NCBI GenBank assembly: GCA_018609055.1
Contig: JABAYJ010000003.1
Span: 25,457 to 89,456 of the forward strand
Direction of reading: 5' to 3'
DNA length: 64,000 nt
Source: Flavobacteriales bacterium
Lineage (GTDB): Bacteria; Bacteroidota; Bacteroidia; Flavobacteriales_D; CAJJDF01
Below, one piece after another: positions 6,687 to 36,299 of this stretch. The stretch's first letter is position 1, and every line of letters starts with the position of its first letter. The position numbers and the translations under genes are program-made. Below the pieces are notes generated by a model. It did no database searches, was not told where the DNA came from, and saw only the letters and a list, made by a program, of their open reading frames with translations.

Positions 6687-9452
6687 ATGAAAAAATTTAT
6701 ATTCTTAGCATTATTACTAGTTTCCTCTTATGGGAATGGACAGTTTAAAATTAACGGAACCGTAACAGGTAACACAGATGATTTAATTGAGCCAGTAGCC
6801 TTTGCAAATATATTAATAAAAGGAACTTCTATTGGTGCTTCTACTGATTTTGACGGAAAATTCACATTAAATATAGACAAAGGAACATATGTGTTAGTAA
6901 TCTCTTCAATAGGGCTTGATAAGCAAGAAATAACAGTACAAATAGTAGATTCTAACGTTACTGTAGCAGTAGAACTTACTTCCTCATCCACTTATATTGG
7001 AGTAGTAAATATAGTAGGTAGAGAAGTTGGAGGAACTAAAACTATGGATATCTCCGAAGTAAAAAACTCTGATGGTGTTGATGCTGTAATAGGTGAAGAA
7101 AAAATGAAAGAAACAGGAGTTTCTGATGCTGGTGGAGCTGCAAAAAAGGTAGTAGGTTTATCAGTAGTAGGTTCAGGAAATGTATATGTAAGAGGTTTAG
7201 GAGACCGATACAATTCGGCATATTTAAATGGGCTACCAATTGCATCTCCAGACCCAGACAAAAAAGTAATTCCATTGGATTTATTCCCTACAAATGTCAT
7301 AAAATCTATGACAGTGAAAAAGGCTTACATGCCAAATTTAGAAGGAGATTTTTCTGGAGGGGCAATGGATATTTCTACCAAAGTATACCCGGACGAAAAA
7401 GTGCTTAAAATTTCATTGGGAACAGGGTTAAACTCTCAATCTATTGGAAGACAAAGAATGACTTATGAAGGAGGAGGATTAGATTACCTAGGTTTTGATG
7501 ATGGAATAAGAGCTATTCCAGATGCAATTACTAATGAAGATGCTTATCGTTCTACCGAAGGGAGTAAATCCTTATTTGCTAATAATTTAAATCCAGTACA
7601 TAAGTCTACTTTACCAAATACAAGTTTTGGTTTATTTGCGGGTAATGTATTTGAATTAGATAACGATAAAAACTCTAAAGTTGGTTTTTTGGTTTCATTA
7701 AACCACTCTAACAGCAATGAATATGCATTTGGAAAATATAGAGTAATCAATACACAAGAAGATATACAAATTGATTATGACTTTGAAGATTACACTACTT
7801 CTACTTCTACTTCTGCATTAGCAAACATTGGTTTTGATATTGATGAAAACAACCTTATTTCTTATAATTTTTTGTATGTAAATACCTCTAGCGATCAAGT
7901 AAAAGAAGTATACGGATCACACTGGGATTATGCTAGAAACGTATACGCTAGAAGATTCACTTTTAAGCAAAACAACTTAATGAATAACCAAATTACTGGT
8001 TCTCATTTCTTAATGGATAAAAACAAATTAAGAATAAACTGGTCGGCAGCACTTAACAATGCAAACAGTACTGAACCAGACAGAAGACAATTAGTCTATT
8101 TCTTTGATGATAAAGAAGATCCCGAAAACTATACGATAAATGCTACCGATAGAATTGAAAACCACCGTTTTTTCTCTTTCTTATCTGAAAGACAATTCAC
8201 TGCCAAAGCTGAAGCAACATACGTATTCAAATACAATACAGATAATGTAGAGGATGGAGCAAAATTAGCTTTTACAACAGGAGGTATGATTAAGAGAAAA
8301 ACAAGAGATTTTGATTTTACTCAATTTGTATATGACATGAATTTGTCAGATAATTCATTAGATTTTCTTAATCCAGACTCATACATTAATCCTACAACTC
8401 ACGAAGCAGGAGAGTTTAGTATACAAGAGGCCCTGAACCCTGCAAGTGCATATTTGGCAACACAAAGCATTAATTCTGTATACGGAATGTTAGATTATAA
8501 CATTACTCCTAAAATAGAAATGATTGCAGGAGCAAGAGTAGAAATGAGTGACCAAAAAATAACTTGTTTGGATCAAACTCAACCAGATTTTAAACGAATT
8601 AATCGAATTGTATCTACAGACATTTTACCGTCTTTAATATTAAAGTACCAACCTAATGACACTAATATTGTAAGATTTTCGGCAAGTAAAACAATTACAA
8701 GACCTGGATTTAAAGAAGTAGCGCCATTTCAATATACCGAAGTATTTGCAGGTGCAACTACAGTAGGAAATCCAGAATTAATAAATGGAGAAAACTACAA
8801 CTTTGATGTTAGGTACGAAAGATACCCAAGATTTGGTGAGTTTATGGCGGTAGGAGTATTCTACAAAAAACTAGTAAATCCTATTGAAAAAACAATGGAA
8901 GTTGCTACCAACCAATTACAATCTTTCCGTAATGCTGGAAATGCAACTGTAGCAGGAATAGAATTTGAATACACTAGTTCACTTTCTTTCTTAACTAAAT
9001 CAGATTCTTCGTTTCTTAGGTTTGTTTCTTTAGGAGTTAACGGAACCTATTTATACTCTAAAGTAACTTTTGACCCAGAAGCTAACTTAGCTCAAACAAA
9101 TAGCGAAAGAGCTTTACAAGGAGCTTCTCCATACTTAATTAATCTTGATTTAGCTTACTCTAGAACATTGAAAGAAAACTTAAAAGTAAACTTTAGTATC
9201 TCTTATAATGTATTTGGAAGAAGGATTTATAACGTAGGAATTTATGGCCTTGGTGATGTTTACGAATTACCTGTAAACTCACTTAATTTAGTTGCTGGTG
9301 TAGAACTAGAACACTTTAATTTTGGATTTAGAGTAAACAACTTACTAAATCAAGACATCCGATTTGAGCAAGAAACTCCAAATGAGCCAATCATCATTAA
9401 CTCTGCAAGAAGAGGGGTATTTACATCATTAAGTGTTGGATACAAATTTTAA
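6687..9452 (+). CDS. TonB-dependent outer-membrane receptor with N-terminal carboxypeptidase-regulatory-like domain
   Basis: Signal peptide. CarboxypepD_reg-like start (FKINGTVTG...ANILIKGTSIGASTDFDGKFTL). Plug region (VYVRGLGDRYNSAYLNGLPIASPDP). C-terminal beta-barrel ending in aromatic F (SVGYKF). Confidence 0.9.
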   Translation: MKKFIFLALLLVSSYGNGQFKINGTVTGNTDDLIEPVAFANILIKGTSIGASTDFDGKFTLNIDKGTYVLVISSIGLDKQEITVQIVDSNVTVAVELTSSSTYIGVVNIVGREVGGTKTMDISEVKNSDGVDAVIGEEKMKETGVSDAGGAAKKVVGLSVVGSGNVYVRGLGDRYNSAYLNGLPIASPDPDKKVIPLDLFPTNVIKSMTVKKAYMPNLEGDFSGGAMDISTKVYPDEKVLKISLGTGLNSQSIGRQRMTYEGGGLDYLGFDDGIRAIPDAITNEDAYRSTEGSKSLFANNLNPVHKSTLPNTSFGLFAGNVFELDNDKNSKVGFLVSLNHSNSNEYAFGKYRVINTQEDIQIDYDFEDYTTSTSTSALANIGFDIDENNLISYNFLYVNTSSDQVKEVYGSHWDYARNVYARRFTFKQNNLMNNQITGSHFLMDKNKLRINWSAALNNANSTEPDRRQLVYFFDDKEDPENYTINATDRIENHRFFSFLSERQFTAKAEATYVFKYNTDNVEDGAKLAFTTGGMIKRKTRDFDFTQFVYDMNLSDNSLDFLNPDSYINPTTHEAGEFSIQEALNPASAYLATQSINSVYGMLDYNITPKIEMIAGARVEMSDQKITCLDQTQPDFKRINRIVSTDILPSLILKYQPNDTNIVRFSASKTITRPGFKEVAPFQYTEVFAGATTVGNPELINGENYNFDVRYERYPRFGEFMAVGVFYKKLVNPIEKTMEVATNQLQSFRNAGNATVAGIEFEYTSSLSFLTKSDSSFLRFVSLGVNGTYLYSKVTFDPEANLAQTNSERALQGASPYLINLDLAYSRTLKENLKVNFSISYNVFGRRIYNVGIYGLGDVYELPVNSLNLVAGVELEHFNFGFRVNNLLNQDIRFEQETPNEPIIINSARRGVFTSLSVGYKF

Positions 9453-9477
9453 TTAAAACTTAAACCATTTATATAAA

Positions 9478-9509
9478 GGCATTCTTACTTTGGTAAGGAT
9501 GCCTTTTTT
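9478..9509 (+). terminator. Rho-independent terminator
   Basis: GGCATTCTTAC / GTAAGGATGCC stem (one G-U pair) with a 4-nt loop, then TTTTTT. Confidence 0.7.
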
Positions 9510-9618
9510 AATTTAATGTTAACTCCTAAGGTCATATTCTTAAAATATCCTTAACGCAGTAAATATATTCAAGTAAGATTCATTGTTGATTTTTGTATCA
9601 AATAAAAAAACAAAAAAA

Positions 9619-10923
9619 ATGAACACAACAATCAAAAATTTTGGAATGCTGATTTTAACAGCAGGTCTGCTAACAACAACTGCCTGTAAAAAAGAAACTG
9701 GCTGTACTGATCCTAATGCAAGAAACTATAACCCTGATGCGGTTGAAGATGATAACAGTTGTGAAACTGTTCCTTACACAGTTACTACAACTGATATTAA
9801 TGGAGTTTCTTACGAAAGAGTTTCTGGAACATTTGATGAAAACTATACATTTACTAGCAGTAAAAAATGGTTATTGAGTGGAGGTATTTTTGTTGATGCA
9901 AACGCTACATTAACAATACAAGCTGGAACAGAAATATATGCAGCTGATGATCAAACTACTCCGTTTTTATCCATATTAAGAGGAGGAAAAATTAATGCAG
10001 TAGGAACAGCAACTAGCCCTATTGTAATGACTACAATTAAATCTGTTACTGGAACACCAGCTGCAGGTGATTGGGGAGGAATTATAATCAATGGGAATGC
10101 ACAAATAAATAACGGAACTGAAGCTGAAGGAGAAGGAGGAACTGGAAAATATGGTGGTTCTAATGATAACGATAACTCAGGTACTATAAAATATGTGAGA
10201 GTTGAATACGCAGGAAAGTTATTAGGAACAGACAATGAGCTAAACGGATTTTCTTTTAATGGAGTAGGAAGCGGAACAACTGTCGAATATATTCAGGCAT
10301 ACAGAGGTGCAGATGACGGAATCGAATTTTTTGGAGGAACAGTATCGGTAAAATATGCAGTGTCTACAGGAAATAAAGATGACTCATTTGATTGGACATA
10401 CGGATGGAGAGGAAACGGACAGTTTTGGGTTGTAAACCAAGAAGTTGGAGGTGGAGACAGAGGAATTGAAGCAGATAACAATGGAAACGATAATACGTTA
10501 TCTCCTTATTCTAACCCTACTATTACTAACGTAACTTTAATAGGAATTGACGATGGAGATGCTTCAAACACTGGAATGAGATTAAGAGAAGGAACAAAAG
10601 GAACAATCCATAATGCAATTGTTACAGGTTTTCCAAGTTCAGGAGTAAGAGTTTCTGATGCACAAACTACGACTAACATGACAAACGGTGAGTTGGCACT
10701 AAAAAACTCAAATGTGTTCACAAACGGAACTAACTTTAGAGATTGTGCAACTTTCTCTGGAGATATGACTAATTCAACTACAATTTTAACCTTAACGGGG
10801 TATGTTGGAACATCAACTACAAATGCAGCTGACCCAACTACTTTAGGTTCTTGGTTTTCTCCTGGAACATTTGTTGGGGCGGTAGAATCAACTAATGATT
10901 GGACTGCAGGATGGACTAAATAA
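9619..10923 (+). CDS. Surface lipoprotein of unknown function (Gly/Asn/Thr-rich, beta-helix-like repeats)
   Basis: ATG at 9619 gives MNTTIKNFGMLILTAGLLTTTACKK (lipobox). Short Cys-bounded motif CTDPNARNYNPDAVEDDNSC. Repetitive G-x-G/N-rich strands (DDGIEFFGGTVSV, DDSFDWTYGW, GIEADNNGNDN). Confidence 0.7.
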   Translation: MNTTIKNFGMLILTAGLLTTTACKKETGCTDPNARNYNPDAVEDDNSCETVPYTVTTTDINGVSYERVSGTFDENYTFTSSKKWLLSGGIFVDANATLTIQAGTEIYAADDQTTPFLSILRGGKINAVGTATSPIVMTTIKSVTGTPAAGDWGGIIINGNAQINNGTEAEGEGGTGKYGGSNDNDNSGTIKYVRVEYAGKLLGTDNELNGFSFNGVGSGTTVEYIQAYRGADDGIEFFGGTVSVKYAVSTGNKDDSFDWTYGWRGNGQFWVVNQEVGGGDRGIEADNNGNDNTLSPYSNPTITNVTLIGIDDGDASNTGMRLREGTKGTIHNAIVTGFPSSGVRVSDAQTTTNMTNGELALKNSNVFTNGTNFRDCATFSGDMTNSTTILTLTGYVGTSTTNAADPTTLGSWFSPGTFVGAVESTNDWTAGWTK

Positions 10924-31368: not shown

Positions 31369-31500
31369 AAAATAACTGTAACATTTTGCCAACCTCAATC
31401 ATTATAATGATAAAGAAAGTTAAAATCAAGTGGTATTTTGTTCAAAACCCTTAATTATATTATAAATAGTTGTATTTTTACTCTTGAAATTTTCTTCAAC

Positions 31501-31935
31501 ATGAAAAAAATAATTTTAATCATATTAACTCTTACATCCATAATGGGATGTGGGAATATTACAGATTCTGAAAATGTAATGGCCAATACCTCTACATCCA
31601 TGAAAATTAGTGGGATGACTTGTGAAGAAATGTGTGCTGGTAGAATTGAAGATAAAATTAGTCGAATGAGTGGTGTTAAATCTTGTGAAGTTGATTTTGA
31701 AAATGAAATAGCTACTGTTTTTTATGATAAAAAGAAAGTAGACATTGATGAAGTGATATTAAAAGTAGGTGATATGAATGATGGCCAATATGGTGTGTCT
31801 GAAGTAAAAACTGAAAACATAGAGAATACAAATTCTGATATAAACTCCGGTGGGGGAAGCGAAACAGGACAGATAATAACTGCTCCAAGTTTTGAACTTC
31901 CTAATTTGGCAGACTATTTCAGAAACATATTATAG
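31501..31935 (+). CDS. Heavy-metal-associated (HMA) domain lipoprotein
   Basis: ATG at 31501 gives MKKIILIILTLTSIMGCGN (lipobox). HMA fold motif ISGMTCEEMCAGRIEDKI (Cx3C variant) ...ATVFYD. Confidence 0.75.
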   Translation: MKKIILIILTLTSIMGCGNITDSENVMANTSTSMKISGMTCEEMCAGRIEDKISRMSGVKSCEVDFENEIATVFYDKKKVDIDEVILKVGDMNDGQYGVSEVKTENIENTNSDINSGGGSETGQIITAPSFELPNLADYFRNIL

Positions 31936-31959: not shown

Positions 31960-32070
31960 AAACTTATAAAGAAAGGTGGAGGGAAAAGGCCCTTTGAAAC
32001 CTTAGCAACCGTTCCAATTTATTGGAGAAAGGTGCTAAATCCTTCTCTAGAAATAGGGAAATATAAGTTG
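31960..32070 (+). promoter_or_regulatory. SAM-I (S-box) riboswitch
   Basis: CTTATAAAGAAAGGTGGAGGGAAAAGGCCCTTTGAAACCTTAGCAACC...AAGGTGCTAAATCCTTC...GAAATATAAG matches the conserved SAM-I core (GGUGGAGGGA, GGCCC, UGAAACC, GCAACC, GGUGCUAA-UCC). P1 pairs ACTTATA with TATAAGT. Confidence 0.85.
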
Positions 32071-32087
32071 CATAAAAGGAATTTAAA

Positions 32088-32122
32088 CCCCCTTTCTGCA
32101 ACATGCAGAAAGGGGGTTTTTT
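32088..32122 (+). terminator. Riboswitch expression-platform terminator
   Basis: CCCCCTTTCTGCA / TGCAGAAAGGGGG perfect 13-bp stem followed by TTTTTT. It ends 19 nt before the GTG start at 32141. Confidence 0.85.
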
Positions 32123-32140
32123 GATTTAAAAAAGTAAAGC

Positions 32141-33139
32141 GTGAGTAAGTTAAAAGAAGAATTAAAGAAAAGAATACTAGTGCTTGATGGAGCCATGGGA
32201 ACCATGATTCAGCAATATAAGTTAGGTGAAGAAGATTTTAGAAAAGGATGGTTTGAAGGTCACGATTTCCCATTAAAAGGAAATAATGATTTGCTATCTC
32301 TAACTCGCCCTGACATTATAAAAGCAATACACGCTAAGTATTTTGAAGCGGGAGCAGATATAGTTGAAACCAATACGTTTAGTGGAACAACCATAGCTCA
32401 AGAAGATTATAACGCACAAGACAAGGTTTACGAAATCAATTATCATTCTGCTAAAATAGCAAAAGAAGTAGCTGATGAATTCACAGCAAAAGAGCCTAAT
32501 AAACCTAGGTTTGTTGCTGGCTCAATAGGGCCAACAAATAAAACTGCTTCTATTTCCCCAGTGATAAATGATCCTGGATTCAGAGCAATATCATTTGATG
32601 AATTAGTAGTCGCATTTTCTCAACAAGTGGAAGCGCTTATTGATGGCGGGGTTGATATGCTATTAGTAGAAACAATTATTGATACTTTAAATGCAAAAGC
32701 AGCTTTATTCGCAATCGAACAAGTATTCGAAAAGAAAGGAGTTGAAATTCCTATTATGGTTTCGGGAACTATTACCGACCAAAGTGGAAGAACACTTTCC
32801 GGTCAAACAACCGAAGCATTTCTTATTTCTACAGAGCATGCGCCAATTACTAGTATTGGATTAAACTGTGCTTTGGGAGCAAAAGAATTGAAACCTTATT
32901 TACAGGTTATGTCTAAAAAATCTCCTTTTTTAGTTAGTGCACACCCTAATGCAGGATTACCTAACGAATTTGGAGAATATGACGAAACACCAGAAATGAT
33001 GGCGGATCAAATAAAAGTATTCCTTGAAGAAGGACTATTAAATATTGTAGGTGGATGTTGCGGAACATCACCAGCTCACATAAAAGCTATAGCTGATTTA
33101 GCGAAAAACTACGAACCAAGAAAAATTAACCAGAACTAA
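32141..33139 (+). CDS. Homocysteine S-methyltransferase domain protein (N-terminal module of a split methionine synthase)
   Basis: [13 protein letters not shown] start. Zn-ligand cysteines are present in GLNCALG and GGCCGTSP. It corresponds to the MetH Hcy-binding module only. Confidence 0.9.
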
Positions 33140-33150
33140 AAAACCATAAA

Positions 33151-33591
33151 ATGGCTGCACCTAAATTATACAAAGAAATAGACAAAACTATTTTGGAAGC
33201 GATTCCAAATCCTTCGAAAGAAGCGTATGAGGTTAAAATTAAAATTCCTGAATTCACATTTTTGGGAGTTAAAGAACAACCAGATTTTGCTACAATATTT
33301 TTAACAATGTATCCTAACAAAAAAATTATTGAGCTTAAATCATTGAAGCATTACTCTTTTCACTTGCGTGATATTGTAGTTTCTTACGAAAGACTAATCA
33401 ACATTTTTTACGATCACTTGATGGAAGTTTATGAGCCAGACAGAATGAGAATTGAAATGATTTGTAACCCTAGAGGAGGAATATCAGCAAAATTAGCTAT
33501 CGATTCTGATTGGGCAGCAAGAGGCGGAAAAGAAAAATACAAAGATTGGATGAGTAATCCAGGAACTGATAACTGGAGCGTAGTGATGTAA
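33151..33591 (+). CDS. QueF-like T-fold protein lacking the catalytic cysteine
   Basis: It aligns with unimodular QueF. PEFTFLGVKEQPDFAT compares with the canonical PEFTSLCPxTGQPDFAT. ELKSLKHY (QueF motif) and NPRGGIS are retained. The Cys nucleophile is Gly, and FHE is SYE. Confidence 0.7.
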   Translation: MAAPKLYKEIDKTILEAIPNPSKEAYEVKIKIPEFTFLGVKEQPDFATIFLTMYPNKKIIELKSLKHYSFHLRDIVVSYERLINIFYDHLMEVYEPDRMRIEMICNPRGGISAKLAIDSDWAARGGKEKYKDWMSNPGTDNWSVVM

Positions 33592-33623: not shown

Positions 33624-36299
33624 ATGAAAAAAGATTATACCCTAAAATTAAGTGGTCTTGAACCGTTACTTGTAACGCCAGAAACCAACTTTGTAAATAT
33701 TGGTGAAAGAACTAACGTTACTGGTTCTCGAAAATTTCTTCGATTAATAAAAGAAGAAAGATTTGATGAAGCTCTAGATGTTGCTCGTGACCAAGTTGAA
33801 GGTGGCGCGCAAATTCTGGATGTCAATATGGACGAAGGAATGTTAGATGGAAAAGAAGCTATGGTTAAGTTTTTGAACTTAATTGCATCTGAACCAGACA
33901 TTGCAAGAATTCCTGTGATGATTGATTCTAGTAAATGGGAAATCATTGAAGCTGGACTTAAATGTATTCAAGGAAAAGGAGTTGTAAACTCTATTAGTCT
34001 TAAAGAAGGAGAAGAAAAGTTTATTGAGCAAGCCAAAAAAGTTAAAATGTATGGTGCCGCAACTATAGTTATGGCTTTTGATGAAGATGGACAAGCCGAT
34101 AACTACGAACGAAGAATTGAGATTTGTAAACGATCTTATGATATCTTGGTGGATAAGGTGAAATTTCCTCCTCAAGACATTATTTTTGATCCAAATATTT
34201 TTCCTGTAGCAACAGGAATTCCTGAGCACAATAATTATGCGGTAGATTTTTTTAAAGCTACAAAATGGATAAAAGATAACCTTCCTGGAGCAAGAATTAG
34301 TGGAGGTGTGAGTAATGTTTCTTTTTCTTTTAGAGGAAACAATAAAGTGAGAGAAGCTATGCATTCTGCTTTTTTATATCACGCAATAAAAAACGGAATG
34401 GACATGGGAATTGTAAATCCAACTATGTTGGAGATTTACGATCAAATCCCTAAAGAATTATTAGATAAAGTAGAGGATGTTCTATTAAATAGAAATGATA
34501 ATGCAACTGAAGAATTATTAGATTATGCAGAAAGTGTAAAGGGAGATGGGAAGAAGAAGGTAAGAGATTTATCTTGGAGAGAAACGGATGTAAAATCTAG
34601 AATGACTTACGCTTTAGTAAAAGGACTTACAGAATTTATAGAAGAGGATACCGAAGAATGTAGACTGTTATTTCCGGAACCAATTCAAGTAATTGAAGGT
34701 CCTTTGATGGATGGAATGAACGTAGTTGGAGATTTATTTGGATCTGGAAAGATGTTTTTACCTCAGGTAGTAAAGTCTGCTAGAGTTATGAAACAAGCAG
34801 TTGCGTACTTAAATCCATTTATTGAAGAAGCAAAAAACGGAGAAGTACAACCAAATGGAAAAGTATTGATGGCAACCGTAAAAGGTGATGTCCATGATAT
34901 TGGAAAAAACATTGTTGGGGTAGTTTTGGGATGTAATAACTATGATATTGTAGATATGGGGGTAATGGTTCCTACACAAGATATTATTAAAAAAGCGATT
35001 GAAGAAAACGTAGATGTAATTGGATTAAGTGGTTTAATCACTCCTTCTTTGGATGAAATGGTAGGTGTTGCTGAAGAAATGGAGAAAGCAGGGTTAACAA
35101 TTCCTCTTTTAATTGGTGGAGCAACAACTTCTCGAGTTCACACTGCTGTAAAGATTGAAGAAAATTATACCAAAGGACAAACTATTCACGTGTTGGATGC
35201 TTCACGTTCTGTAACTGTAGTAGAAAAATTATTAGGAACAACTTCCAAGGAATTTGTGGCAGATATTAAAACAGAATACGAAAAAGTAAGAGTAAATCAT
35301 GCGAATAAAAAATCTCAAAAGAGATTACTTCCTTATGATGTTGCACTTGAAAACAGATTTAAAATTGAGTGGAAAGCAGAAGACATTTATACGCCTAATT
35401 TTATAGGAAATAAGACTTATGAAAACTTTCCATTGGCAGAGTTAATTCCATTTATTGATTGGACTCCATTTTTTCAAACATGGCAATTGGCAGGACGTTA
35501 CCCAAGAATATTAACGGATGAGGTTGTAGGAGAACAAGCAACTGATTTATTTGCTGATGCACAAGAAATGCTTGCTAAGATTGAAAAAGAAAACTGGTTA
35601 ACTGCAAAAGCAGTAATCGGAATTTGGCCAGCAAACTCCAATGGAAAAGATGATGTATTTACTTATTCGGATGAAAACCGAACAGAAGTTGTCGATACTT
35701 TATATTCATTAAGACAGCAAACACAAAAAGCTAAGCAATTACCAAATTTCTCTTTGGCAGATTTTATTGCTCCAAAAGAAACTGGGTTACAAGATTACAT
35801 TGGTGGTTTTGTAGTTACCTCTGGACTTGGAATAGAAAAATATGTGAAGCAATTCCTAGATGATCTAGATGATTACAGTTCTATTTTATTAAAAGCCTTA
35901 GCTGATAGATTGGCCGAAGCCTTTGCAGAATTAATGCACAAGAAGGTAAGAGAAGAATTATGGGGTTATGCTCCAAATGAAACTTTGGAAAACGAAGAGT
36001 TGATAAACGAAAAATATCAGGGAATTCGACCTGCACCAGGATACCCAGCTTGTCCAGATCACACTGAGAAAACTACTTTGTTCGCAAAACTTAACGCTAC
36101 AGAAGAAATTGGTGTACAATTAACTGAGTCAATGGCAATGTACCCTGCAGCATCAGTAAGTGGGTTTTATTATGCTCATCCACAATCCAAGTATTTTGGA
36201 TTAGGGAAGATAGAAATGGACCAAGTAAAGAGTATTGCTGAAAGAAAAGGAATGGAAATCGATAAAATGAAAAAGTGGTTGAATCCAGTGATTAACTAA
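33624..36299 (+). CDS. metH: Methionine synthase, pterin-binding + cobalamin-binding + AdoMet-activation modules
   Basis: Pterin-binding region ([11 protein letters not shown]). B12 motif [11 protein letters not shown]...SGLITPSL. C-terminal reactivation domain ([12 protein letters not shown]). Confidence 0.93.

Follow-up and report, generated by a model that had tools for sequence, protein, structure and literature searches.

Unimodular QueF (YkvM), the NADPH-dependent preQ0 reductase of B. subtilis (EC 1.7.1.13), is a single-domain T-fold enzyme. QueF is defined by a catalytic Cys that forms a thioimide (Cys55 in B. subtilis, Cys194 in V. cholerae), a general acid/base Asp in the QPDFA loop (Asp62/201), a substrate-anchoring Glu (Glu97/234), as well as the QueF motif, E(S/L)K(S/A)hK(L/Y)(Y/F/W), which includes Glu78 and forms the NADPH-binding site (PMC5372742). 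Sequences without Cys55 fall outside this definition, which is the one used in the field (PMC5372742). Archaeal QueF-L, an amidinotransferase (archaeosine synthase; Pyrobaculum calidifontis, PDB 5JYX), is also a QueF-derived T-fold paralogue with changed chemistry; it still has the Cys and forms a thioimide, yet works without NADPH (PMC5485725; PMC10516641). GTP cyclohydrolase I (FolE) and other T-fold pterin enzymes have an acidic residue anchoring the 2-amino-4-oxo-pyrimidine ring. As for MetF (MTHFR, PF02219), it is an FAD-dependent TIM barrel using NAD(P)H, and SAH-riboswitch and SahR regulons of the methyl cycle typically include its gene.

Here, we describe QFL, our name for a Cys-less QueF-like T-fold protein of 146 aa encoded in a 64,000-nucleotide stretch of a Flavobacteriales genome, hereafter the window. 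QFL is probably an undescribed enzyme of one-carbon metabolism.

Results

QFL is encoded within a split metH operon preceded by a SAM-I riboswitch

The locus comprises the following features, listed by position in the window.

31961..32069, + strand: SAM-I riboswitch aptamer (S-box leader), a full-length match to Rfam RF00162 at 87.7 bits (gathering score 44.4)
32085..32129, + strand: predicted expression platform, an intrinsic terminator found by a consensus terminator scan (stem-loop 32085-32119 with a T-run behind it)
32141..33139, + strand: metH part 1, homocysteine-binding (S-methyltransferase) module, 332 aa (PF02574, 337 bits)
33151..33591, + strand: QFL, 146 aa (ATG 33151, stop 33589-33591)
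33265-33267, + strand: QFL Gly39 codon (Cys55 position)
33283-33285, + strand: QFL Asp45 codon
33331-33354, + strand: QFL NADPH/QueF motif, E61-Y68, predicted from the motif
33382-33393, + strand: QFL Ser78-Tyr79-Glu80-Arg81
33469-33486, + strand: QFL PRGGIS
33624..36299, + strand: metH part 2, pterin-binding, B12 cap, B12-binding and reactivation modules, 891 aa

The QFL gene separates the two parts of a split metH, from which it is spaced by 11 nt and 32 nt. The first half covers positions 10-339 of the NF007024 methionine synthase model, and the second, which contains the PF00809 (Pterin_bind), PF02607 (B12-binding_2), PF02310 (B12-binding) and PF02965 (Met_synt_B12) domains, matches positions 341-1230 of the same model with 1537 bits. 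The terminator is placed between the aptamer and the first start codon, and has a 16-bp stem with eight G-C pairs, a 3-nt loop and TTTTGATTT after the stem. It would be the off-switch of the SAM-I riboswitch operon. The same scan detects no terminator-like site on the + strand between metH part 1, QFL and metH part 2, and QFL would be co-expressed with both MetH halves at low SAM.

QFL is a QueF homolog that has lost the catalytic cysteine

The sole Pfam match of QFL is QueF (PF14489), with 59.5 bits for a cutoff of 27.3, and its score against the NCBIfam QueF-II equivalog TIGR03139 is 86.7 bits, which is 0.2 under the cutoff of 86.9. When QFL is aligned pairwise with B. subtilis QueF (4F8B/4FGC/5UDG) using HMMER (E ~1e-15), the active-site loop is gap-free. 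In this alignment, Cys55 is replaced by Gly39, and Asp62 and Glu78 correspond to Asp45 and Glu61. Downstream, Phe95-His96-Glu97 becomes Ser78-Tyr79-Glu80, Asp98 is an Arg, and the protective Cys99 is Leu82, while the QueF motif reads ELKSLKHY (residues 61-68). QFL and YkvM share the QPDFA loop with its general-acid Asp, the Glu anchor, the E-x-K-S-x-K-x-Y motif and the PRGGIS strand. QFL differs in having an added, conserved C-terminal tail (DSDW..RGG.E.Y.DW). Judged against the field's definition, QFL lacks the Cys and retains the general acid, the anchoring Glu and the QueF motif.

The loss of the Cys is not a sequencing accident, since FTFLGV is found at the loop in 120/120 nearest homologs and no residue other than Gly occurs at position 39 in an alignment of 26 sequences that are 34-67% identical. 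In the latter alignment, Asp45, Glu80, Leu62, Ser64 and Lys66 are also invariant, with Glu61 and Tyr68 conserved at 90% or more. The lone Cys in QFL, Cys105, falls in a column that is not conserved. Among 150 representatives of 50%-identity clusters, 98 span both sites; 56 of these combine Gly with SYE, and 26 combine Cys with [F/Y/S/T/G][H/Y/M]E. Both classes, Gly and Cys, keep the NADPH motif (E-K-K-Y) and the Asp to the same extent, and the Asp45 position is occupied by Asp in all 73 scorable Gly-class representatives. In QueF, the QueF motif binds NADPH and Glu97 anchors the substrate (PMC5372742). From retention of the motif, we infer that QFL binds NADPH.

As for the fold, the AlphaFold2 (AF2) monomer model of QFL has a pLDDT of 86.7 and a pTM of 0.81, and is composed of strands 28-40, 43-54, 98-105 and 113-118, and helices 62-74 and 79-94. 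The predicted topology is that of a T-fold, β-β-α-α-β-β, with an acidic anchor for a purine or pterin ring. The best Foldseek match of the model is B. subtilis QueF, with an RMSD of 1.5 Å over 112 columns and 38% identity, followed by GTP cyclohydrolase I (E ~4e-6) and QueF-L (E ~5e-5). These two differ from QFL. FolE, which shares the T-fold and the acidic anchor at 11-18% identity, has no NADPH motif and uses zinc-dependent chemistry. QueF-L, at 10-12% identity, does not use NADPH and has a conserved Cys that bonds preQ0-tRNA as a thioimide, a pattern that QFL reverses by keeping the NADPH motif and losing the Cys. MetF has no sequence or fold relationship to QFL, which has no PF02219 homology and no flavin-binding features.

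These findings bear on a first-pass annotation of the window made from the sequence alone. The motifs that it quoted (FTFLGVKEQPDFA, ELKSLKHY, SYE and NPRGGIS) are all present in the ORF. Its homology to unimodular QueF is seen along the whole core, as both the Pfam score and the fold match attest. The replacement of the catalytic Cys and the change of FHE to SYE stand in the careful alignment, and the riboswitch score together with the terminator before the first gene bears out the proposed SAM control. The established mechanism (PMC5372742) makes it unlikely, as that annotation argued, that QFL reduces a nitrile in the way QueF does.

QFL belongs to a widespread, highly conserved clade

In a phylogenetic tree, QFL falls in a large monophyletic Cys-less clade that is set apart from QueF on a long branch. 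Members are found in Bacteroidota, Halanaerobiaceae, Parcubacteria and Alphaproteobacteria, as well as on large phage contigs and in giant-virus MAGs. Identity between phyla and viruses is 51-67%, with 16 residues invariant across phyla, and QFL is conserved more than the flanking MetH halves. Its dN/dS of 0.03-0.07 indicates strong purifying selection. The cultured phages in INPHARED have only the Cys-containing QueF form, with at most 39% identity to QFL. In the literature that we searched, we found neither a report on QueF relatives forming a Cys-less clade nor one on QueF homologs within met operons, and the first reading of the sequence likewise knew of no described function for such a protein. 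QFL is a widespread, undescribed and highly conserved paralogous clade of the QueF T-fold family. Domain fusions are uninformative, with one FliM chimera and phage-type Lar/Zn-ribbon N-termini on some members.

Genes of the activated-methyl cycle recur at QFL loci

Our sample of loci on genome contigs consists of Bacteroidota only, and was scanned with a narrower alignment (A3), the broad alignments A1 and A2 being too diverse. The order riboswitch, MetH_N, QFL, MetH_C is found in 64 of the 80 Bacteroidota species genomes. QFL stands alone in the remaining 16, as it also does in other phyla and viruses. Searches with nhmmer place a homologous aptamer ahead of 62 of the 64 MetH-linked loci, Rfam detects one in L061, L068 and L192, and neither nhmmer nor Rfam finds a SAM riboswitch in front of stand-alone copies.

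QFL has other partners as well. In locus L120, it is followed by a small activation-domain-like ORF and then by an unsplit, short MetH (777 aa), while in L092 it overlaps the start of MetE by 25 nt. In L187, AhcY follows QFL 2 nt away. Viral contigs harbor a QFL, MetK, AhcY cassette in which QFL and MetK are spaced by 1-2 nt, with no methionine synthase nearby; because some of these loci sample the same virus more than once, they count as one or two events, not nine. In one of them (L176), a DNA methylase lies ~2 kb upstream. The L120, L092, viral, L187 and Bacteroidota contexts each belong to a different sub-clade in the tree.

A canonical MetF (PF02219) is present in the QFL operon in at least three Cytophagales lineages (L061/L072, L192-197 and L199/200), and operons with both genes occur in Marinoscillum, Reichenbachiella and a Cyclobacteriaceae-like MAG. 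Ekhidna (L198) has a split metH and metF, with another small ORF in the slot and no QFL. In Crocinitomicaceae-type operons, including that in the window, QFL is found without metF within 10 kb. Copies from a Parcubacterium, an alphaproteobacterium, Halanaerobiaceae and giant-virus MAGs have no methionine-cycle gene within 8-10 kb.

We also looked for queC, thyA, folA and a second queF-family gene, none of which was found in 197 loci (2.58 Mb with 8-10 kb flanks), 19 of which are IMG/VR loci with 10-kb flanks. In these searches, queC was probed by tblastn, and the thyA/folA-type probes were E. coli sequences used as search queries only. Together, these findings show that the recurrent feature of QFL loci is the whole activated-methyl cycle, not the split MetH. 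The expectation that Cys-less homologs would always be sandwiched between metH halves thus fails, strong as the linkage is in Bacteroidota. The pterin/folate role that the first-pass annotation had put forward is strengthened by the proximity of QFL to unsplit MetH, MetE, MetK and AhcY.

Discussion

A candidate NADPH-dependent folate reductase

We are confident, short of certainty, that QFL is not a QueF and is functionally tied to the methyl cycle. That it acts on a folate or pterin with NADPH is a view towards which we lean, and an MTHFR-like reaction in particular is a tentative proposal made by analogy. QFL keeps Glu80 as anchor for the 2-amino-4-oxo-pyrimidine ring, Asp45 as general acid and the QueF motif predicted to bind NADPH, with the nucleophile swapped to Gly and the adjacent wall of the pocket remodeled (Phe-His to Ser-Tyr, and Asp to Arg). 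Hydride from NADPH could be passed directly to an already electrophilic carbon on the pterin or folate, with no covalent catalysis. When the pyrimidine rings are superposed, by our own chemical reasoning rather than with a tool, C7 of 7-deazaguanine would coincide with N5 of the pterin, and the nitrile carbon that accepts hydride in QueF would therefore map onto the one-carbon unit at folate N5. An N5=CH2+ iminium would need no thiol activation. We infer both the folate substrate and the specific reaction, the most likely of which would be conversion of the N5-iminium form of 5,10-methylene-THF to 5-methyl-THF. This would be a flavin-independent, MTHFR-like supply of methyl donor to MetH and MetE. 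The likeness to MetF would be one of function only, suggested by shared company (metH, metE, metK and ahcY).

In its boldest form, this reading would make QFL a novel flavin-independent T-fold enzyme in folate one-carbon metabolism, most likely a methylene-THF reductase of ~140 residues that uses NADPH and is derived from QueF by dropping the Cys. As a compact means of feeding methyl groups to the SAM cycle, it would have moved between bacteria, large phages and giant viruses, and in viruses it would act with virus-encoded MetK, AhcY and DNA methylases. We give this reading a probability of about one in three. Our first idea, that QFL simply replaces MetF, is weakened by the presence of MetF in the same operon, and we keep it in the form of an isozyme or a stepwise displacement. 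MetF only in Ekhidna, both in Reichenbachiella and Marinoscillum, and QFL only (at the scope of the operon) in the Crocinitomicaceae type is the pattern that stepwise non-orthologous displacement would leave. Nevertheless, co-transcription of MetF with QFL counts against an MTHFR activity, two isofunctional enzymes in one operon being unusual. So do the copies without methionine-cycle neighbors, since 5-methyl-THF may be of no use to a CPR bacterium.

Alternative roles

A different reading, which we consider rather unlikely, is that QFL is an NADPH reductase for another folate or pterin step that aids methionine synthase and complements MetF. Candidate steps are repair of 5-methyl-5,6-dihydrofolate to 5-methyl-THF, reduction of 5,10-methenyl-THF to methylene-THF, and DHFR-like or dihydropterin reduction. 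The evidence from residues, fold and context is the same as for an MTHFR-like enzyme, and co-transcription with MetF in Cytophagales would be accounted for naturally. General folate reduction would also be sensible in phages, giant viruses and CPR bacteria with no methionine synthase nearby. However, linkage to MetK and AhcY points to flux through the methyl cycle rather than to general folate reduction, and each candidate step has its own difficulty. A DHFR role predicts thyA/folA neighbors, and we rejected it because none is found in the 197 loci. A methenyl reductase would be redundant with FolD, which is near-universal, and we know of no precedent for a 5-methyl-dihydrofolate repair enzyme.

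It is improbable that QFL is not an enzyme but an accessory protein that binds a ligand (folate, NADPH or purine) and stabilizes, regulates or channels for methionine synthase or the methyl cycle. The adaptor between MetH modules suggested in the first-pass annotation is one form of this idea. Such a role would suit the exact placement between MetH halves 11 nt and 32 nt away, the absence of the catalytic Cys, and the extreme conservation, which is as expected of proteins with many interfaces. Several contexts speak against it. The split metH of Ekhidna does without QFL and has a different small ORF in the slot, and QFL itself occurs with unsplit MetH, with viral MetK/AhcY where no methionine synthase is nearby, and alone in many taxa (16/80 in Bacteroidota). 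Its pairing with MetE argues against an adaptor because MetE has no separated modules. Moreover, binding alone does not call for a general acid (Asp45) and a full NADPH motif that are invariant or close to it, as they are here. On similar grounds, we rejected QFL as a B12 reactivation partner: Ekhidna lacks it, and it is found with unsplit MetH and with MetE, which uses no B12. NADPH alone cannot give the single electron for cob(II)alamin reduction.

Slightly less probable still is a role in 7-deazaguanine metabolism on a substrate that requires no thioimide, such as a preQ0/preQ1 imine or aldehyde, in salvage, or on a modified phage DNA base. The nearest relatives of QFL by sequence and fold are QueF enzymes, Glu80 and Asp45, which correspond to the residues for preQ0 binding and protonation in QueF, are kept, and some members have phage-type Lar/Zn-ribbon N-termini. 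Phages are also known to carry queF for DNA modification (PMC10516641). We set a queuosine or 7-deazaguanine cluster aside, however, because neither queC nor a second queF-family gene lies within 8-10 kb in the 197 loci and INPHARED phages have only the Cys-containing form. The partners of QFL are MetH, MetE, MetK, AhcY and MetF, none of which is a queuosine gene, and control by a SAM riboswitch would have no obvious logic. Finally, despite its public names and a TIGR03139 score only 0.2 bits short, QFL is most improbable as a genuine preQ0 reductase with another nucleophile, since the invariant Gly at position 55 has no side chain, Cys105 is not conserved and the definition in the field excludes sequences without Cys55 (PMC5372742), or as a decaying, functionless remnant, which the dN/dS and the 16 invariant residues exclude.

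Implications for metabolism and annotation

Very strongly conserved, and linked in unrelated genomes and in viruses to methionine synthase, SAM synthetase and SAH hydrolase, QFL stands out as a missing or alternative component of a central cycle. Should QFL prove to be a flavin-free MTHFR or some other folate reductase, a textbook reaction would have a new enzyme solution. In that case, it would also be a clear case of re-purposing of the T-fold active site, the reverse of archaeal QueF-L, and its viral copies would count as new auxiliary metabolic genes that keep methylation going in infected cells.

Thousands of the clade's database entries bear the name "preQ1 synthase", "7-cyano-7-deazaguanine reductase" or "hypothetical protein", an inconsistency that arises because the TIGR03139 score is marginal. 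The first two names, the former also written "preQ(1) synthase" in public annotation, are almost certainly wrong for the clade, and this misnaming skews how queuosine metabolism is reconstructed for Bacteroidota, candidate-phyla bacteria and viruses. PHROGs places QFL in a generic "GTP cyclohydrolase" family.

QFL is a QueF homologue that has lost the catalytic cysteine

QFL, our name for the Cys-less QueF-like T-fold protein of the window and for its clade, is encoded between the two parts of a split metH: MetH_N (homocysteine-binding module) and MetH_C (pterin, B12-cap, B12 and reactivation modules). These neighbours and the SAM riboswitch preceding them, which the first-pass annotation had claimed, are indeed present (Pfam/NCBIfam and RF00162 matches).

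Features of the QFL operon
31961-32069 (+), SAM-I riboswitch (RF00162, 87.7 bits)
32085-32129 (+), strong terminator hairpin with T-run, 3' of the riboswitch
32141-33139 (+), MetH homocysteine module, upstream neighbour of QFL
33151-33591 (+), QFL ORF, ATG start, 146 aa
33624-36299 (+), MetH pterin, B12-cap, B12 and reactivation modules, downstream neighbour of QFL

QFL is separated by 11 nt from MetH_N and by 32 nt from MetH_C, and a terminator scan of the + strand between the three genes revealed no terminator-like site. The window contains no second copy of the gene. The riboswitch is preceded, at a distance of 26 nt, by the end of a lipoprotein-like ORF (31438-31935, +), in whose translation we read a GMTCxxC heavy-metal-associated motif.

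QFL matches the Pfam QueF family (PF14489) with 59.5 bits and the NCBIfam equivalog for "QueF-II, preQ1 synthase" (TIGR03139) with 86.7 bits. Because the latter score straddles the cutoff of 86.9 bits, near-identical QFL proteins are variously named "hypothetical protein", "preQ(1) synthase" or "7-cyano-7-deazaguanine reductase" in public records, which looks like systematic mis-annotation. Among solved structures, QFL matches only B. subtilis QueF (4F8B, 4FGC, 5UDG; E ~1e-15), a preQ0 nitrile reductase. A gap-free alignment of the two proteins gave the residue equivalences below, the PDB chain index being the literature number plus one, as confirmed at Asp62, Glu78, Glu97 and Cys99. All motifs previously quoted are present in the ORF as written, and the loss of the Cys is confirmed.

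Active-site equivalences (B. subtilis QueF; QFL)
Cys55, thioimide-forming; Gly39
Asp62; Asp45
Glu78, start of the QueF motif; Glu61, motif ELKSLKHY
Phe95-His96-Glu97-Asp98-Cys99; Ser78-Tyr79-Glu80-Arg81-Leu82

The defining features of QueF are Cys55, Asp62, Glu97 and the QueF motif, and its investigators exclude any sequence in which one of these is missing (PMC5372742). QFL fails only at Cys55. Since this residue carries the chemistry and Gly offers no substitute side chain, QFL is, judged by its sequence, not a QueF, and the earlier view that nitrile reduction is unlikely stands.

The AF2 model of QFL is confident (pLDDT 86.7, pTM 0.81), and its best structural match is again B. subtilis QueF (rmsd 1.5 Å over 112 columns), followed by GTP cyclohydrolase I, bimodular QueF and archaeal QueF-L, the archaeal QueF-like paralogue. 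Canonical QueF lacks a conserved C-terminal tail, DSDW-xx-RGG-x-E-x-[YF]-x-DW, that QFL (residues 118-133; 33502-33549) and its homologues share. Model confidence is low at the extreme C-terminus (residues 135-146).

Cys-less proteins form a single conserved clade

FTFLGV...QPDFA and SYE are present in all 120 nearest homologues (79-100% identity). We searched 1.84 billion representatives of 50%-identity clusters and obtained 1118 clusters at E <= 1e-3, the best 150 of which fall into two signatures. When representatives were aligned to the subfamily profile, 98 spanned both sites: 56 have Gly39 with Ser-Tyr-Glu and 26 have Cys with [F/Y/S/T/G]-[H/Y/M]-Glu, while the 10 with Pro at position 39 and F/Y/H-x-E probably represent canonical proteins offset by one residue. 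The Asp and the E-K-K-Y of the NADPH motif are equally retained in the Gly and Cys classes. Across 26 sequences of 34-67% identity, the invariant columns are G39, Q43, P44, D45, L62, S64, K66, R73, S78, Y79, E80, P96, P107, R108, G109 and G110. In a quick neighbour-joining tree (130 columns), Cys-less proteins form one clade, with a long stem separating them from canonical QueF. The dN/dS of QFL against Bacteroidota orthologues is 0.03-0.07, and QFL is more conserved than the adjacent MetH halves (for example, 85% versus 66-67% at locus L017). This conservation, the single clade, the low dN/dS and the confident model together show that QFL is a functional, ancient QueF paralogue rather than a remnant. 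Among longer forms, some carry Lar-type or other zinc-ribbon N-termini, and a database QFL-FliM "fusion" (P0166, 339 aa) looks like a chimeric assembly.

In the literature searched, neither a Cys-less QueF clade nor a QueF homologue in methionine operons was described, and the 2026 GapMind update, which deals with missing genes of amino-acid biosynthesis, does not mention QFL. We class QFL as an uncharacterised subfamily, distinct in function, within the QueF/T-fold family.

QFL recurs beside activated-methyl-cycle genes in bacteria and viruses

A scan with one genome per species yielded 252 relatives, and 20-kb loci of the best 80 were analysed. All 80 are from Bacteroidota, with hosts in Crocinitomicaceae, Cyclobacteriaceae, Flammeovirgaceae, Marinoscillum, and Bacteroidales and Chitinophagales MAGs. 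QFL adjoins a MetH half in 64 of these genomes, in the order MetH_N, QFL, MetH_C with both halves in 59; contig ends interrupt four of the 64, and 62 have an upstream SAM riboswitch. In the remaining 16, QFL is alone, in variable surroundings and with no riboswitch. The idea that Cys-less homologues are always sandwiched between metH halves thus holds for 59-64 of the 80 Bacteroidota genomes but not across the family. In Crocinitomix sp. GLR79 (L068, 9626-13366), the riboswitch lies directly 5' of QFL, which is followed by MetH_C, and MetH_N is absent within 10 kb upstream.

A profile built from distant QFL members matched 2583 proteins. Entries from Halanaerobiaceae, Parcubacteria and Alphaproteobacteria share 56-67% identity with the window protein, and QFL stands alone among housekeeping genes in these genomes. 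Metagenome and IMG/VR scans added ~100 loci, many on phage-like contigs (<=236 kb) with T4-type topoisomerase II, PhoH, DnaK and GroEL, and three on giant-virus MAG contigs. On a giant-virus MAG contig (L188), an indoleamine 2,3-dioxygenase gene (8555-9895, -) is divergent from QFL. Cultured phages in INPHARED yielded only Cys-containing QueF (<=39% identity) and no Cys-less form.

The activated-methyl cycle is the sole repeating functional theme beside QFL. In L120 (GC 54%), QFL is followed by a 185-aa ORF with a weak Met_synt_B12 match, an unsplit 777-aa MetH (S-methyl_trans, Pterin_bind and B12 domains) and, farther along, aspartate kinase. In L092, QFL and the start of MetE (Meth_synt_1/2) share 25 nt; a short-chain dehydrogenase gene (7174-7836, -) lies divergently just 5' of the pair. 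Viral contigs carry a QFL-MetK-AhcY cassette (L096, L119, L173, L175-178) with a QFL-MetK gap of 1-2 nt and AhcY identified by Pfam (450 bits). In L104, the same order ends in an AhcY broken by the contig end, and shorter contigs (L093, L094, L100, L101, L105, L106, L109, L111) show only MetK with QFL. Several of these viral loci are repeated samplings of one virus. On a 148-kb viral contig (L187), AhcY (AdoHcyase, 455 bits) starts 2 nt after a QFL that clusters with giant-virus sequences. A DNA N6/N4 methyltransferase gene (L176, 4417-5196) lies ~2 kb 5' of one cassette.

Candidate folate chemistry and its alternatives

We put the probability that QFL is not a QueF and is tied to the methyl cycle at roughly 0.8. 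Archaeal QueF-L, which makes no use of NADPH, retains the Cys and the thioimide chemistry (PMC5485725, PMC10516641). QFL shows the converse, having lost the Cys while keeping the NADPH motif, the general acid and the ring anchor, a pattern pointing to a reductase that would give hydride directly to an already electrophilic substrate. T-fold proteins anchor 2-amino-4-oxo-pyrimidine rings, and to our knowledge folate is the only such compound within the methyl cycle. When the pyrimidine rings are superposed, pterin N5 would match C7 of 7-deazaguanine, so that the hydride-accepting carbon of QueF would map onto the one-carbon unit on N5. We infer that the N5=CH2+ iminium of 5,10-methylene-THF may be the electrophile, its reduction giving 5-methyl-THF. 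The balance tips slightly towards NADPH-dependent action on folate or pterin, with NADPH binding predicted purely from motif conservation, and the earlier idea of pterin/folate handling is strengthened.

An MTHFR-like reaction is the likeliest specific reading, though more tentative. It would fit the company of QFL (MetH, MetE, MetK, AhcY), with which metF is usually found, and its regulation by a SAM riboswitch, and it would give the viral cassette a role in keeping SAM-dependent methylation going. Should this activity hold, QFL would represent a new class of enzyme catalysing a central reaction. The main objection is that canonical MetF (PF02219) is co-transcribed with QFL in Cytophagales: its gene lies 3' of MetH_C within one operon in Marinoscillum (L061, L072), in Reichenbachiella (L199/200) and in a MAG resembling Cyclobacteriaceae (L192-197); these tblastn matches were later confirmed in Pfam-annotated loci. 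Such co-transcription speaks either for isozymes or for QFL performing another folate step that complements MetF. As isozymes, the two might mark successive stages: "MetF only" in Ekhidna, "both" in Reichenbachiella and "QFL only in operon" in Crocinitomicaceae. Parcubacterium and giant-virus MAG copies with no methionine-cycle gene nearby are left unexplained. Another folate redox or repair step, which would complement MetF, is rather unlikely.

A non-catalytic accessory or adaptor is improbable: the proposal of an adaptor between separated MetH modules is unsupported, as QFL also occurs with MetE, unsplit MetH or viral MetK/AhcY, and Ekhidna (L198) has split metH and metF without QFL. We give marginally less credence to a 7-deazaguanine-related role; no queC, thyA, folA or second QueF-family gene was found in 197 loci (2.58 Mb), the E. 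coli MetF, ThyA, FolA and QueC probes being used as tblastn queries only. That QFL is a true QueF or a remnant is hardly credible, given Gly39 and its conservation.

In Ekhidna, a small PF05635 ("23S rRNA intervening-sequence protein") ORF fills the slot between the metH halves; such ORFs occur within Cytophagales metH-metF operons (L192, 9602-9976; L199, 7598-7966; L198, 4911-5264). MetH of Ekhidna is called as three ORFs (L198, 3892-7934: Hcy module, pterin plus B12, and a separate activation domain); either a genuine three-way split or an assembly frameshift may account for this.
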